From a virus: a DNA stretch of 38,836 nt. Position 1 is the stretch's first letter. Every line of letters begins with the position of its first letter. Positions 4,203 to 9,572 of this stretch are shown one piece after another. A program made the translations under genes and the position numbers. Where the stretch lies: IMG/VR virus record IMGVR_UViG_3300017941_000198. One strand, given 5' to 3'. A model generated the notes under the pieces. It did not search any database, was not told the origin of the DNA, and saw nothing but the letters and a program-made list of their open reading frames with translations.

Positions 4203-4446
4203 GCTCCTGACTGTTAATTATGGCCCACAAAATAACGATTACGTCAAATATGGGTCCCCACCAAGTTGCAACAAACTCGACAAGCGTTAACAGGCTAAAT
4301 GCTTGCCCAGTTAAATCTCCCATAGCTTGATAAGCGATTGTTAAGACTACGCCGTTGCAGATGTACCAGCCAACAGTGATTATGAAGAGGCACACGATAG
4401 CGGTGAACCAAACGAACAAGACTCGCGTTAACCAGTCACCTGCCAT
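4171..4446 (-). CDS. Small two-helix hydrophobic protein, candidate capsid/envelope protein
   Basis: 91 aa, two long hydrophobic segments, in the structural operon. Confidence 0.65.
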   Translation of the reverse strand: MAGDWLTRVLFVWFTAIVCLFIITVGWYICNGVVLTIAYQAMGDLTGQAFSLLTLVEFVATWWGPIFDVIVILWAIINSQELDPNSQILGY

Positions 4447-4694
4447 TCAAACCTGTTTGCAATCTTATGCGCATTTTTATAGGATAATCCTCGTTTCATT
4501 AAGTTAGTTTCTACTCCTTCATGGGTACGGAGCTTTAGCTTCTTCGCTGGTGTATCGTATTTGTCGCTTCGTACCCACACTTCGTTTGCAGGAATCTTCC
4601 CTCTTAGCTTCTTTGGCAATTCATTCTTAGGCATGAGTCCATGAAGCGCAATGTAGTCGCCCATTACTTTTTTAGACTTAACCAAGACGCGCAT
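4428..4694 (-). CDS. Basic 88-aa protein with an HExxE...AH motif (possible metal site)
   Basis: THEGVETNLMKRGLSYKNAHKIA. Confidence 0.6.
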   Translation of the reverse strand: MRVLVKSKKVMGDYIALHGLMPKNELPKKLRGKIPANEVWVRSDKYDTPAKKLKLRTHEGVETNLMKRGLSYKNAHKIANRFEWQVTG

Positions 4695-4980: not shown

Positions 4981-7734
4981 TTAGCGCCGTCTTCTTGTTT
5001 GCCTCCTGCTCTTGGTTGCTTGCTTCCTTCTCTGTTTAGTTGCTTGTTTAGGCTTGAAAGCTTTAATCATTTTGTTCGCATTCTTCTCAATGTTCCGCAT
5101 AGGCTTCCCCATGCCTCCGACACCGAAGGTTTTAAGCATTTGACTGTAAGTCTTAATCTTGTGCTTCTTGAGATACCATTTACCGCCAAACATATTTTTT
5201 GGACCAAGATTATCAAAACCACCACCTAAACCAAAGGCAGGCATCTTTGGAAAAGTCTGCTTAGAAACATTTGGAAACTTTGGAAATACAGAGGTTGGTA
5301 CTGTTCTCGGTATTTGTCGGGGAACTAGAGTAGGAGTTAATTTAGGAATTAGAATAGGAGTTGTTTTCGCTATAGTTATCGGTGTTGTTCTCGGAATTTG
5401 GAAAGGGGTTATTTTAGGAATTTGAACAGGAATTAAACTAGGCATTGTTTTTGCTATAGTTACAGGTTTCGTTATAGGTGTTATTGTAGGAATCCTTATC
5501 TGAGATTGCCTTTGATTGAAAGTTGGAATCAATGATTGCTCTTGTCCTTGTCTTTGCGTGACACCCAGAATATTCCTTGTTTGAGTTATAGAAGAAGCAA
5601 TTATTTTAGGAGAAGCTAATCCAGAATTTGGATAAACCAAAAATGATGTTTCTTCTTCGTCGGCTTGTGTTGAAAATATATGCGGTGTTAGGAAGCCAGA
5701 GATTTTAAATTTTGGAGCAGTCAATTTAGCTTCACCAATTATAGCACGTGGCAAAGCAACCTCTTTAGGCTCTGTTGTAGCCTGAATAAGTTTAGTTACA
5801 TCCGGTGCATTAACATTTAAAGAAGTATCTTCTGCGGCATTTTTGAAAAACTTGTTTGAACCAGTCTGCATAGCTCCTGACAAATCTTTAGGCGCTTGAC
5901 TTCCATAATCAACGATGGGTCTGTAATTTCCACCTAACTGTTTATAGATATTTTGCGCTAAATCCTCAGGAAGAGACTTAGCAATATCCGCAACGTTTAC
6001 CTCATCAGGAATGCCTCTGATTTTTACTCCAGTAAAATCTCTAAAGCTAATCTTGGTTTCAGGCAAAATAGCTTCTTCCGATGTAACAATTGTCTTCTCA
6101 GCATATACGGCTGGAGGTTGACCTTTCGTTAAGTCAATAGTTACTTTAGTCCGTTGAATCGCGGGCATATCTGAAGGAGTCTCTAAGAAGTCATTTACGT
6201 TTCCAGTTTTTGCTATAGCTAACTTATAATTGCCATTTCGCTCAAGTGCCGCAAGAAGTGGATCCCCTTTACGGATTGATTCAACTTGTCTTAGAATTGG
6301 GATTGGTTCAAGTTCTTTGCCGCCTATCTCCATGTTAGGCTGATAGACTTTTTCGGTTCCTGCTAAATCAACAACTGGATTCTGAAGTGTCTTAAGATTA
6401 TATTCTTTGTAATAGGAAACATCTTTGCCCCGTAAAGTTACCGTTTCAATGTCAGGTTCTGTAAGTTGACCGATAATGGTTTCTTTTCCGAAAGTGTTTT
6501 GTGCTGAAAGTTCTTTGACGCTTGTTAACTCCTCAAACTTTACACCAATAATATTGTCGCGTATGGTGCCAATTACTCTTTGACCCGTATCTGTTGCCCT
6601 AATCTTTCCACCTACAGCTCCAACAACTTCTCCTGCCGCGCCAAATGCTGCGCCGAACTCTGCACCTTGAATTATCGCTTGAGAATTACCAAGACTTAAT
6701 ATGGCGTTGCCACCTGCGCCTAACCCAGCATTAAGACTTATCCGTGTTGCAGCACGAACAATCGGGTTAGCAACGTCACCAGCTAATTGAGGTGCAACCT
6801 CGCCGATAGCGCCCAAAGCTCCAGCACCAATAATACCAAATGCTGCGCTATATGCAGCGACATCAAGAACTTCTTTAGGTGAAGCAGGCAAAACTAAACT
6901 TGCTTGTCCAGTCGCAAAAGACTTAGTTGCAGATTGAATTCCTATGTTTGCACCTTCCCCAATCGCTATGCTCGGAATAACAATTTCAGGTGCAACTGCC
7001 GCAGTAATGGCGATTCCTCCAGCTTCAGCAACTAAAGCCTTGGTTGAAGGAGGATTGTTAAACGCTGACAAAGGATTCTTTGTGGGTGTCGTTACACGGG
7101 TAAAAAGAGTGGCACTTAAGCCACCTGCTGGGTAAGCAGAATTTATTTGTTTTATGTAATTAATTTTATCTTGAAGCGGAATATACGCAGGCGCACCTAA
7201 CGCTAAAGCTTCTTCATTAGAAGATGGGTAAGAAGTGACATCCGCTATTTCCTTGTCTCTTTCTTGAATCTGCTCTAGTGTTAATGGAACTATAACTTGC
7301 TTTGTGTATGTAGTTGATTTTTCTCCTACTGGATTAACAATGCTTAAATTCGATGCGAAAGGTTTGCCACCTATATTTGATATGTCATTGTAGATTGTGT
7401 TTCCAGCGTTGCCAATTGCTTGACCTGCATTGCTTATGGCACTTGATATTGTACCAAGAAGGCTAGATGTTTTTGGTGCAGGAGTTGGCGTTGTTGGTGC
7501 TGGTGTAACGCTAACTTCAGGAGTAACCGCTGGATTCCCCAAAGGAGTTGTTGGGCTTCTACCTACCCCTGCCGAATATGGAGATTGCGCTACTGGCGGT
7601 GCTGCTTGAGCTTTAGCCATGTTCGCGTTCTGTATAGCCATAGCACTGTTATATTGATCTTGCGTAATCGTGCCAGAAGTTAAGGCTTGCTGAAAAACAG
7701 CGTTCTGCGCTTGAATCTGAGCAACCGTGCTCAT
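4981..7734 (-). CDS. 917-aa putative internal/structural protein: P/T-rich N-terminus, G/A-rich hydrophobic helices, IPxxTP repeats, K/R-rich tail
   Basis: GGAG RBS 11 nt upstream; GAGLGAGG and GAEFGAAFGAAG segments; tail KQRRKQATKSRRQTRRRR. Confidence 0.85.
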   Translation of the reverse strand: MSTVAQIQAQNAVFQQALTSGTITQDQYNSAMAIQNANMAKAQAAPPVAQSPYSAGVGRSPTTPLGNPAVTPEVSVTPAPTTPTPAPKTSSLLGTISSAISNAGQAIGNAGNTIYNDISNIGGKPFASNLSIVNPVGEKSTTYTKQVIVPLTLEQIQERDKEIADVTSYPSSNEEALALGAPAYIPLQDKINYIKQINSAYPAGGLSATLFTRVTTPTKNPLSAFNNPPSTKALVAEAGGIAITAAVAPEIVIPSIAIGEGANIGIQSATKSFATGQASLVLPASPKEVLDVAAYSAAFGIIGAGALGAIGEVAPQLAGDVANPIVRAATRISLNAGLGAGGNAILSLGNSQAIIQGAEFGAAFGAAGEVVGAVGGKIRATDTGQRVIGTIRDNIIGVKFEELTSVKELSAQNTFGKETIIGQLTEPDIETVTLRGKDVSYYKEYNLKTLQNPVVDLAGTEKVYQPNMEIGGKELEPIPILRQVESIRKGDPLLAALERNGNYKLAIAKTGNVNDFLETPSDMPAIQRTKVTIDLTKGQPPAVYAEKTIVTSEEAILPETKISFRDFTGVKIRGIPDEVNVADIAKSLPEDLAQNIYKQLGGNYRPIVDYGSQAPKDLSGAMQTGSNKFFKNAAEDTSLNVNAPDVTKLIQATTEPKEVALPRAIIGEAKLTAPKFKISGFLTPHIFSTQADEEETSFLVYPNSGLASPKIIASSITQTRNILGVTQRQGQEQSLIPTFNQRQSQIRIPTITPITKPVTIAKTMPSLIPVQIPKITPFQIPRTTPITIAKTTPILIPKLTPTLVPRQIPRTVPTSVFPKFPNVSKQTFPKMPAFGLGGGFDNLGPKNMFGGKWYLKKHKIKTYSQMLKTFGVGGMGKPMRNIEKNANKMIKAFKPKQATKQRRKQATKSRRQTRRRR
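5281..5520 (-). repeat. Degenerate protein-level repeat (IP-x-x-TP) in the 917-aa protein
   Basis: IPTITPITKP...IPKITPFQIPRTTPITIAKTTPILIPKLTPTLVPRQIPRTVP. Confidence 0.7.
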
Positions 7735-7853
7735 TTACGTTTTTTCTCCTTTCTTGTTTGTCGGCTAGCTTGCTGTGCTATTCGCCAGTATTCTCTAATG
7801 ATTGCTGGAGAATTACCGCCTAAAGGTCTTCCGCGTTGTTTCTTTTGTTTCAT
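7731..7853 (-). CDS. 40-aa basic peptide with an AT-hook-like RGRP; first gene of the structural operon
   Basis: Hand translation MKQKKQRGRPLGGNSPAIIREYWRIAQQASRQTRKEKKRK; TGA overlaps ATG 7734. Confidence 0.6.
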   Translation of the reverse strand: MKQKKQRGRPLGGNSPAIIREYWRIAQQASRQTRKEKKRK

Positions 7854-7868
7854 TCTTCCACAGTTATA

Positions 7869-7895
7869 TTGTCAATGACAAAGCTTATAAGCTTT
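7869..7895. promoter_or_regulatory. Bidirectional promoter: perfect palindrome AAAGCTTATAAGCTTT plus adjacent inverted repeat TTGTCA-A-TGACAA
   Basis: Palindrome at 7880-7895 is centred on TTATAA, about 35-37 nt from both divergent ATGs (7853, 7925); IR at 7869-7881. Confidence 0.7.
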
Positions 7896-7924
7896 ACTCA
7901 CTCTATAAGATTTGTTGAAAACAC

Positions 7925-8131
7925 ATGCCAAAACGAGACACAGAAGATTGGAGTGATGGCGTACACTTTATTGACAAAGAGTTAGAGAAGGTCAACGCAA
8001 AAGTTAGAGCCAAAACTTTCAATTCGATGCCTCGCTACAAAAACGAAACGCCATTACAGCACCTAACAAGAGCAAATATTGAATTTCAAAAAAGGAAGAA
8101 ACAGAGAAATGCTTATGGGAGAATAATTTAA
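7925..8131 (+). CDS. Small basic protein
   Basis: First ORF after the promoter; basic C-terminal half. Confidence 0.7.
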   Translation: MPKRDTEDWSDGVHFIDKELEKVNAKVRAKTFNSMPRYKNETPLQHLTRANIEFQKRKKQRNAYGRII

Positions 8132-8132
8132 A

Positions 8133-8345
8133 ATGGTTAGTAAATGGATTCAAAAAGCAAGTAACCCACGCAAAAAAGGAGCATTACACAAGCAACTCGG
8201 AATCTCGCTGGATAAGAAGATTCCTAAAGCTACGTTGCATAAGATTGTTAAAGCTAAGGTCGGCAGCAAGGTGCATGGAAAAACCGTAACCACAACAATG
8301 AAAAGACGGGCCTTGTTTGCGATTAATGCGCAAAAAAGGAGATAA
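8133..8345 (+). CDS. Fusellovirus VP2-like basic DNA-binding nucleoprotein
   Basis: KWIQKASNPRKKGALHKQLG resembles the SSV1 VP2 N-terminus (recalled as KWVQKAIKRPG); 20/70 K+R, one acidic residue. Confidence 0.65.
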   Translation: MVSKWIQKASNPRKKGALHKQLGISLDKKIPKATLHKIVKAKVGSKVHGKTVTTTMKRRALFAINAQKRR

Positions 8346-8357
8346 GGTGCAACACAA

Positions 8358-8504
8358 ATGAGTATCTTTGAAATTGAAGGTAAAAAACCAAAAAATTATC
8401 ATGGACCAACCCATTATAAAATAACTGATATGGGCTTTAGTTATGTTGGTATTCACTCTACTAAGCAAACTAAAAGGAAAACAAAAAAGCGAAAACGGAG
8501 ATAA
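8358..8504 (+). CDS. 48-aa protein with a K/R-rich tail
   Basis: Hand translation MSIFEIEGKKPKNYHGPTHY...KQTKRKTKKRKRR; fills the gap in the operon. Confidence 0.6.
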   Translation: MSIFEIEGKKPKNYHGPTHYKITDMGFSYVGIHSTKQTKRKTKKRKRR

Positions 8505-8509
8505 AAGTT

Positions 8510-8725
8510 ATGAGTTGGAGAAAAGAGAAATCTGAGCATCCTTGGGCAACCAAGATGCAAGCTAAACGCATAGCCCATGACCATGCCGTAAAAAAGAAAA
8601 GCACACGCCACCCAAAAGGTAAGGGTTCAAGTGCAATTCAAACAGCCAAGAAAGACTTCACTAGCTTAGAGGCTGGAGCAAAAAGAATCACATACGGCAA
8701 ACACGAAGCCGAAAAGGTGTTTTAA
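8510..8725 (+). CDS. Small basic protein
   Basis: KEKSEHPWATKMQAKRIAHDH; K-rich; operon-coupled. Confidence 0.7.
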   Translation: MSWRKEKSEHPWATKMQAKRIAHDHAVKKKSTRHPKGKGSSAIQTAKKDFTSLEAGAKRITYGKHEAEKVF

Positions 8726-8726
8726 A

Positions 8727-9065
8727 ATGGCTTGGATTTGGGATCCTAACGCTCGCAGAAGAAAAAAGCAGAAGGAAGATTTAGACAAAGACTATTACAA
8801 GCGCCAAAAAGTCTATAATGCCTCTAAAGAGAAAGAGCGAGAAAGAATCGCGGCTTTAAGAGGTAAACAAGACGCACAGAAAATAGCTAACCGTAAACCG
8901 TTTTACCAGAAGCTCATGGGCGCATTCGCCAACATTGGAAAAGACCTTGTGGCGCAAAGCGGAAACGTTAAGCCTAACGCGCTTTTCACATGGGATACGC
9001 CTAAGAGGCAACGTAAAAGAAAAGGCAAACGCAGAACCAAAAAGGAAAAGGAGGTTGAGTTATGA
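8727..9065 (+). CDS. K/R-rich protein, 112 aa
   Basis: RRRKKQK and KRQRKRKGKRRTKK clusters. Confidence 0.75.
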   Translation: MAWIWDPNARRRKKQKEDLDKDYYKRQKVYNASKEKERERIAALRGKQDAQKIANRKPFYQKLMGAFANIGKDLVAQSGNVKPNALFTWDTPKRQRKRKGKRRTKKEKEVEL

Positions 9066-9382
9066 GTTCTATAGGAAACAAAATTGCTAACCGCTTCATC
9101 CGGTATCGGAATGAGTGGGTGAGAAATCCGCAAAAGAAGAGGAAAGAGTTATATGTGAAAGCCAAAAAAGTGGGCAGTTACATGAACCAAGTTGGCGTTA
9201 ATGTCGTACATAATGTTATGACTGATGCCCCGTCTGATATGATGCCTTTTAGAATGCCACAGCAAACTAGGTCCCGCGAAAGCAGGCGAGTAAGTCAAGT
9301 AAGACGGCGACGCGAGAGAATCGAGCGGAGAGGTAGAAAAAAGAGGCAACGTCAATCATCCAATCCATACCCGCTAATATAA
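9062..9382 (+). CDS. Arg-rich (protamine-like C-terminus) protein, 106 aa
   Basis: RSRESRRVSQVRRRRERIERRGRKKRQRQ; ATGA overlap. Confidence 0.75.
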   Translation: MSSIGNKIANRFIRYRNEWVRNPQKKRKELYVKAKKVGSYMNQVGVNVVHNVMTDAPSDMMPFRMPQQTRSRESRRVSQVRRRRERIERRGRKKRQRQSSNPYPLI

Positions 9383-9401
9383 GAGAAAGGAGAAAAATAA
9401 A

Positions 9402-9572
9402 GTGACATCTAAACGCAAAGTTAAACATAGAAAACAAACTCGCAAAAGAACCAGCTCTAGTAATAGTTTAACTCAGACAAACCGTTTAATCGCAGATAGC
9501 ACCCGCGCCGTTATTGGTTTAGGAGTTTTAGGTGCAACAGTAAACATAGCTAGCGGGTTACTCAAAAAATAG
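9402..9572 (+). CDS. 56-aa protein: basic N-terminus and Gly-rich hydrophobic C-terminal helix
   Basis: GTG start 9 nt after GGAG; MTSKRKVKHRKQTRKR...AVIGLGVLGATVNIASGLLKK. Confidence 0.65.
   Translation: MTSKRKVKHRKQTRKRTSSSNSLTQTNRLIADSTRAVIGLGVLGATVNIASGLLKK

Follow-up and report, generated by a model that had tools for sequence, protein, structure and literature searches.

The locus considered here raises the question of what a virus may accomplish with seven consecutive genes that all encode small, basic proteins. The genes, termed ORF1 to ORF7 (ORF, open reading frame), occupy positions 7925–9572 of IMG/VR virus record IMGVR_UViG_3300017941_000198, whose 38,836 nucleotides (nt) constitute the window analysed in this study. 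A preliminary description of this DNA had read the genes as an operon for a multi-component genome-condensation system, including one VP2-like and one protamine-like protein. On the basis of profile comparisons we conclude that ORF2 is a distant homologue, by descent, of the fusellovirus protein VP2, and the most economical explanation of the operon as a whole, to which we assign a probability of roughly 0.45, is that it constitutes a DNA-coating module of the virion particle.

Fuselloviruses possess a single virus-encoded DNA-binding virion protein, VP2, which is encoded by about ten of them, and the host protein Sso7d is also packaged in SSV1 (PMC9608457, PMC4158269); the literature is thus in agreement with the preliminary description, which had allowed these viruses at most one such nucleoprotein. 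DNA binding and presence in the virion are established for the VP2 of SSV1 only (PMC4158269, PMC9351363). Homologues of VP2 are found in unrelated archaeal and bacterial viruses, namely as ORF9 of Thermus IN93, in the Archaeoglobus provirus ArcVen-P3 and in a Bathyarchaeia provirus (PMC4158269, PMC9608457, PMC9351363, 10.1101/2023.08.24.554615).

Seven consecutive genes for small basic proteins

The presence of seven consecutive small basic ORFs, as had been described, was confirmed from their coordinates, their counts of lysine plus arginine (K+R), their charge and their isoelectric point (pI). All seven are co-oriented on the plus strand and encode proteins of 48–112 amino acids (aa), each with 23–30 % K+R, a net charge of +7 to +22 and a pI of 10.1–12.0, and the net charges sum to +102. 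A common design recurs across the ORFs, in which a short helical or hydrophobic handle is combined with a terminal tail of lysine and arginine, and such tails are placed at the protein end in five of the seven. Pairwise comparison gave no paralogy among them (best E 0.10). Elsewhere in the 38.8-kb window about five equally basic small ORFs were counted in a crude greedy gene set, indicating that basic clustering is not general to the proteome of the window.

The seven ORFs are real genes. Of positions 7925–9572, 97.7 % fall within ORFs of 45 aa or more, whereas 2000 dinucleotide shuffles averaged 22 % and never exceeded 69 %; by codon log-odds trained on the long genes of the window, each of the seven scores higher in its annotated frame than in the other five. 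A lower score was obtained for the antisense ORF at 8184–8468, whose matches in other loci shadow those of ORF2. All seven are called as genes in public collections, where each is found letter-identical on 9–55 contigs (ORF3 on 42 contigs, ORF7 on 9 plus 47), the longest contig being of 423 kb and one NCBI contig of 236 kb. The recovery of identical proteins on up to 55 contigs, together with the length of the longest, implies that sequencing has captured this element repeatedly, in an organism sampled more than once, and that it is probably present there in integrated form; tRNA genes were not found in the window.

The anatomy of the genes is that of an operon, the term used in the preliminary description. 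The successive spacings from ORF1 to ORF7 are 1, 12, 5, 1, -4 and 19 nt, the start of ORF6 overlapping the stop of ORF5 by 4 nt. When the range -17 to -5 relative to each start was scanned for sites resembling a Shine-Dalgarno (SD) sequence, GGAG, GGTG or GAGG was detected 7–11 nt before six of the seven starts, against a local background of 12.6 % (P ~2.5e-5); these include GGTG 8 nt before the ATG of ORF3, GGAGG 7 nt upstream of ORF6 and GGAG 9 nt upstream of the GTG start of ORF7. ORF1 alone, as the first cistron, has no SD-like site, and its start lies about 16 nt downstream of the TATA-like CTCTATAAG. Such a layout, with a leaderless first gene and internal genes preceded by SD sites, is the usual one in archaea.

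ORF2 as a distant homologue of VP2

ORF2 (8133–8345, +) encodes a protein of 70 aa with a pI of 12 and a net charge of +19. Its K+R content of 20/70 is exactly as previously described, and the accompanying label "VP2-like" is borne out by homology that goes beyond composition. BLASTP of ORF2 against SSV1 VP2 (from NC_001338) gives an E of 0.009 and aligns the N-terminal KW(I/V)QKA..G..H..L motif. Searched exhaustively with HMMER, 1.84 billion representatives yielded ORF2 homologues in 159 clusters at E ≤ 1e-3, mostly stand-alone proteins of 60–90 aa, with the family consensus KWIQxA....KKGALHRQLGIP...KIP...L..I.....G....VT.LLK.RA.FALN.R. A profile of 63 ORF2 relatives was compared by hhalign with a VP2 alignment of nine sequences, derived from six fuselloviruses and three Thermus phages, and the two were matched with 90.6 % probability (E 1.3e-6) over 67 columns. 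The profile of the ORF2 family thereby shows the full-length profile–profile homology by which membership of the VP2-like superfamily was judged, with VP2 carrying a 7-residue insertion relative to the ORF2 family. Furthermore, the invariant positions of the VP2 alignment are W3, Q5, A7 and G12, and the motif tested for the superfamily (N-terminal W-(I/V)-Q-x-A ... G-x-(L/V)-(H/R) and a C-terminal basic helix ending LA/FA..(L/N)..(K/R)) is present in ORF2 as KWIQKA..KKGALHKQL and RRALFAINAQKRR.

ORF2 is the only one of the seven proteins with a confident predicted fold. Its AlphaFold2 model, built with the family alignment, comprises four helices and a hairpin (predicted local distance difference test, pLDDT, 86; predicted template modelling score, pTM, 0.70). 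Comparison of the model with solved structures gave no convincing relative (Foldseek against PDB, E ≥ 3; VIA-align wide, best Z 4.0), and the sole BFVD matches are uncharacterised Caudovirales members of its own family (TM ~0.62, probability 0.96–1.0).

Comparison with the VP2 of SSV1, and with the VP2-like proteins of SSV6, ASV1, SMF1, SSV11, SSV19 and SSV22, brings out both likeness and difference. Proteins of this type are likewise very basic and of 70–85 aa; they share with ORF2 the N-terminal KW(I/V)QxA...G.(L/V)H..L and the C-terminal basic helix, are matched along the full length of the profile, and are encoded next to capsid genes. ORF2, for its part, is encoded about 280 nt from a divergent operon that holds the gene of an 83-aa, two-helix hydrophobic protein, a putative capsid protein. 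On the other hand, the RLYG..AF insertion of VP2 is absent from ORF2, which also misses the Pfam model, and whereas the VP2 gene follows VP1/VP3 in fuselloviruses, ORF2 lies in a seven-gene basic operon and is a putative rather than an established DNA binder.

The ORF2 family in other viruses

Genes of the ORF2 family were located in 57 IMG/VR loci. Wherever the neighbours could be named, the gene occupies a head-module position in tailed phages, be it beside the major head protein (locus L014), between adaptor/portal and major head protein (L017) or directly after the portal (L027). Considered together with ORF9 of Thermus IN93, which opens a structural block, and with the fusellovirus gene order, these positions characterise the ORF2 family as a mobile module of virion-gene blocks. 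No other gene of the window is common to the 57 loci, and a recurrent basic operon around the family's genes, which was sought among them with naive ORF calls, was not seen. A setting of seven basic genes is particular to this element.

The relatives closest to ORF2, those of its own KGALH(R/K)QLGIP family in the 57 loci and among the BFVD Caudovirales proteins, share 40–57 % identity and the same predicted fold with it, but are encoded in tailed-phage head modules or occur as fusions, either with DUF5661 or with long polybasic proteins rich in proline. Fusion to the C-terminus of DUF5661 proteins was observed in two IMG/VR loci (L015:3183-5177 and L022:3957-5177), the former of which also gives a weak intein-splicing match (E 1.5e-4, 22 bits; cut-off 35.8 bits). 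In three further IMG/VR loci (L037:4458-6035, L044:38-1240 and L056:14-829) the VP2-like domain lies inside proteins of 270–525 aa with KGG-type basic repeats, long regions rich in proline, glycine, alanine and methionine, and a net charge of +28 to +55; these look like large polycationic proteins of uncultured phages.

Outside the archaeal spindle viruses, the VP2 family has members in Thermus IN93 (ORF9) and in the phages phiFa and Tsatsa (PMC4158269). The gene of IN93 ORF9 stands at the head of the structural block of a membrane-containing virus and is followed by a gene for a small membrane protein, an arrangement reminiscent of the present one; the hosts of these three viruses are however bacterial, their virions icosahedral or tailed, and no run of other basic proteins accompanies the gene. 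Huangdivirus, a spindle-shaped provirus of Bathyarchaeia, carries a VP2 homologue beside two-helix capsid proteins of the VP1/VP3 type and a glycosyltransferase; the resemblance is one of description, and a multi-gene basic set is not mentioned in the portion of the source drawn upon (10.1101/2023.08.24.554615).

The remaining six proteins

None of ORF1 to ORF7 matches a family of Pfam, PHROG or NCBIfam, and library searches for known DNA-binding folds (helix-turn-helix, HTH; ribbon-helix-helix, RHH; Zn ribbon; Sul7d; Alba; histone) returned no matches for any of the seven, the models of ORF1, ORF4 and ORF5 being of low confidence. For ORF3 and ORF7 the searches comprised the domain libraries only. 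PDB sequence searches with ORF2, ORF4 and ORF5 yielded nothing below E 0.25, neither the DNA of the window nor its proteins were matched in GenBank phages, and Rfam gave no match over the whole window.

ORF1 (7925–8131, +) is a protein of 68 aa (K+R 16/68, pI 10.1, net +7) with the basic C-terminus QKRKKQRNAYGRII; no usable match was obtained for it in ESM Atlas and no tblastn match in GenBank phages. ORF3 (8358–8504, +), the shortest with 48 aa (K+R 14/48, net +11), ends in the tail KQTKRKTKKRKRR (KRKTKKRKRR). ORF4 (8510–8725, +; 71 aa, K+R 18/71, net +11) is predicted to be poorly ordered and is likewise devoid of a usable ESM Atlas match (model pLDDT 0.44) and of any match in GenBank phages. 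Assignment of ORF4 to DUF5661 (PF18905), a domain defined here by E-x-E-H ... A-K-x-I-A-x-D-H, was considered and rejected: AKRIAHDH alone resembles the motif, Pfam gives no match, BLASTP gives E 3.4, and hhalign gives 2.4 % over 12 columns.

ORF5 (8727–9065, +) encodes 112 aa (K+R 34/112, net +20), for which the AlphaFold2 model predicts a single long helix at residues 7–78 followed by a disordered polybasic tail (pLDDT 72, pTM 0.32). It has one homologue, the 107-aa protein P0025, which is 70 % identical, begins at the same start and is encoded on a 1648-bp contig; the central KPFYQKLMGA..IGKDLV is kept between the two, while their tails differ in sequence and are equally basic. Relatives of ORF5 were found neither in IMG/VR nor in GTDB representative genomes. 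Conservation in relatives was the touchstone that the preliminary description had proposed for its own claim, and when applied to ORF2 and ORF5 it revealed homologues of both.

ORF6 (9062–9382, +) encodes 106 aa (K+R 29/106, net +22, pI 11.8), and the Arg-rich stretch RRRRERIERRGRKKRQRQ near its C-terminus is present exactly as first described. The designation "protamine-like" holds for this one stretch of 18 residues and for no whole protein: the arginine cluster is confined to the stretch, the remainder of ORF6 is ordinary sequence, and the arginine bulk with clusters throughout that would mark an Arg-rich condensing protein was not found. A near-identical 15-nt segment, AAGAGGCAACGT(A/C)AA, was noticed in the tails of ORF5 (9003–9017) and ORF6 (9341–9355), in frame at codons 93 and 94 (KRQRK and KRQRQ); the two proteins are otherwise unrelated.

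ORF7 (9402–9572, +; 56 aa, K+R 13/56) begins with a polybasic segment and ends in a hydrophobic helix, the maximal Kyte–Doolittle mean over 19 residues being 1.87. This order of a polybasic arm and a C-terminal hydrophobic helix predicts that ORF7 is a basic peptide anchored in the membrane.

A possible DNA-coating module and its alternatives

In the DNA-coating module as we picture it, ORF1 to ORF7 would be transcribed as a polycistronic operon, divergent from the operon that encodes a 917-aa protein and the putative two-helix capsid protein. ORF2 would serve as the folded, DNA-binding protein of the VP2 family, and ORF1, ORF3, ORF4, ORF5 and ORF6, as short helical or poorly ordered proteins with Lys/Arg tails, would neutralise and compact the ~39-kb double-stranded DNA (dsDNA). 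With a charge of +102 for one set of the seven against about 77,700 charges on the DNA, complete coating would call for hundreds of copies of the set in each genome. The membrane helix of ORF7 and the basic C-terminal tail of the 917-aa protein may then tie the DNA to a hydrophobic, lipid-associated shell. In this scheme DNA binding, presence in the virion, co-expression with structural genes and the viral nature of the element are what we infer. In other viruses the genes of the ORF2 family are located within capsid modules, and both ORF5 and the 917-aa protein retain a basic tail in their homologues although the tail sequences drift. The interpretation given in the preliminary description is borne out in part, its multi-component condensation system being retained as a conditional proposal. 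In the other six proteins no DNA-binding domain was found, and among them conservation in relatives could be shown for ORF5 only.

Several observations weigh against a DNA-coating role. ORF2 gives no match to PF25632 (Fusello_VP2_Capsid) even at E ≤ 1 and so falls short of the 27-bit threshold, a model on which SSV1 VP2 scores 138 bits and which one of the 63 ORF2 relatives matches at E 8e-4, below gathering. The single ORF2 sequence reaches only 13 % probability (E 0.002) against the VP2 alignment, so that the link to VP2 is a transitive and distant one. The six other proteins have no recognisable nucleic-acid-binding domain in Pfam, PHROG and NCBIfam, among PDB sequences for ORF4 and ORF5, or in ESM Atlas for ORF1 and ORF4. 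By the same naive ORF calls as above, the ORF2-family gene is almost always the sole strongly basic small gene in the 57 loci. A word search with ORF6 returned only ORF6 itself and a K35R variant, and should relatives lack these genes, this would argue against a core structural role. Lastly, VP2 is dispensable in SSV1 (PMC9608457).

The main competing explanation, which we consider possible but rather unlikely, is that the small basic proteins act in the infected cell and outside the particle, with at most the VP2-like one being packaged. Roles of this kind would include regulators of transcription or replication, nucleic-acid chaperones, binders of host chromatin or ribosomes, and counter-defence. 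Small basic proteins are numerous among the early-operon products of archaeal viruses, and the gene map of SSV1 shows many ORFs of 45–130 aa. Six of the seven proteins carry no structural-protein signature in Pfam, PHROG or NCBIfam, the ORF2 family is seldom accompanied by other basic genes, and the want of a detected homologue for ORF6 would fit the fast turnover more typical of host-interaction genes. The same three libraries, however, revealed no RHH, HTH, Zn-ribbon or other regulator domain, and terminal polybasic tails on short helices are unusual for sequence-specific regulators. The operon moreover abuts the putative structural operon across a common intergenic region, and a predicted membrane anchor on ORF7 sits poorly with an intracellular role of this sort.

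Less probable still is the absence of any common function, in which ORF2 and perhaps ORF5 would be functional and the rest would be fast-evolving ORFans, whose basic character would stem from the A-richness of the coding strand; some of them may be membrane-associated helpers of assembly or lysis. The plus strand is indeed A-rich (AT skew 0.28–0.36), which favours lysine codons, homologues were detected for ORF2 and ORF5 only, the seven show no paralogy, and ORF7 has a predicted membrane helix. A-richness nonetheless leaves the Arg-rich stretches of ORF6 and of the 917-aa tail unexplained, and it is set against the terminal position of the tails in five of the seven, the basic character kept in ORF5 and in the 917-aa family, and the rarity of basic small ORFs elsewhere in the window. 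That most of the seven are not genes, but open frames arisen by chance in an A-rich spacer or remnants of a larger gene in decay, is most improbable. Five of them are without a detected homologue and all are short and of biased composition, but the tiling was unreached in the shuffles, six of the seven have an SD-like site before the start, in every case the annotated frame outscores the other five, the homologues of ORF2 and ORF5 are stand-alone proteins of the same length, and the antisense ORF scores worse, its matches shadowing those of ORF2.

In returning to the DNA-coating module, an analogy may be drawn with eukaryotic viruses. In adenovirus (VII, V and Mu) and baculovirus (P6.9), several small polycations jointly neutralise and condense the packaged dsDNA, and this mode of working, by analogy only, is the one proposed for the operon. 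The core proteins of those viruses have no sequence relation to the present ones and are dominated by arginine, some being protease-matured, whereas lysine dominates here except in ORF6 and in the tail of the 917-aa protein. A bolder and tentative extension, which we regard as more doubtful than the module itself, is that a spindle-type archaeal virus assembles its DNA core from some 7–9 different polycationic proteins, which it encodes itself for this purpose, as a counterpart of the multi-protein cores of adenovirus and baculovirus and in place of the host chromatin protein borrowed by SSV1. Such a core could comprise the VP2-fold protein, five tailed helices, the polybasic peptide with its membrane anchor, a peptide of 40 aa and the tail of the 917-aa shell protein.

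DNA compaction and loading in spindle-shaped and other non-icosahedral archaeal viruses are poorly understood. A virus with its own multi-protein polycation set would, if the proposal is true, offer a tractable model for both, and would also suit the study of disordered basic tails that cooperate with a membrane-like capsid. Apart from this, the KGALHRQLGIP proteins of phage head modules, a large uncharacterised family comprising no fewer than 159 clusters (50 % identity), are now linked to fusellovirus VP2 and thereby gain a testable function.

The divergent operon and its surroundings

The divergent operon on the minus strand begins with the 40-aa ORF and continues with the 917-aa protein, the 83-aa two-helix hydrophobic protein, an 88-aa basic protein and further membrane and secreted proteins. 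Both the 40-aa ORF with RGRP and the Arg-tailed 917-aa ORF are thus present on this strand, in keeping with the preliminary description. The 40-aa ORF (7731–7853, -), the first cistron, has a net charge of +12, is basic at both ends and is called as a gene on 54 contigs; it has no match in Pfam, PHROG or NCBIfam, and its last 4 nt are shared with the start of the 917-aa gene.

The 917-aa protein (4981–7734, -) is a candidate large virion protein. It consists of a Gly/Ala-rich, glycine-zipper-like hydrophobic middle at about residues 230–380, proline-rich I/L-P-x-x-T-P repeats and an Arg/Lys-rich C-terminal tail. Seven homologues of 31–58 % identity were identified, two of them (P0003 and P0004) on contigs of 113 kb and 35 kb, and in all eight members of the family the protein ends in a basic tail, the last 30 residues holding 7–15 K+R and 0–2 aspartate or glutamate although the tail sequences differ. 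Against PHROG 342, which represents an internal virion protein, a weak match was obtained (E 0.0045), while homology with the end-filament protein VP4 of SSV1 was rejected at E 6.3. Relatives of the 917-aa protein were found neither in IMG/VR nor in GTDB representative genomes, and a metagenome scan returned a single locus (L001) of 2785 bp, which covers the middle of a homologue with no flank.

The 83-aa protein has two hydrophobic helices, the usual shape of a spindle-virus capsid protein, and is on that account a putative capsid protein; in Pfam it matches only DUF7248 (E 0.0018), and its match to SSV1 VP3 is confined to the hydrophobic helix. Right after it in the putative structural operon is encoded the 88-aa basic protein (4428–4694, -; net +12, pI 10.3), which has no family match.

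Between the two operons lies an intergenic region of 71 bp (7854–7924), in the centre of which is found the perfect 16-bp palindrome AAAGCTTATAAGCTTT (7880–7895) with a TTATAA core. Its centre is 37 nt from the ATG of ORF1 and about 35 nt from that of the 40-aa ORF, and a second TATA-like element, CTCTATAAGA, is positioned at 7901–7910. The palindrome is a candidate for, and could be, a bidirectional TATA box or an operator shared by both operons.

Elsewhere the window encodes two tyrosine recombinases, ParB, glycosyltransferases and radical-SAM enzymes. At its left end a 719-aa ORF (3–2159, -) runs off the window, from which it follows that the record is either permuted or circular, or was cut inside a gene.

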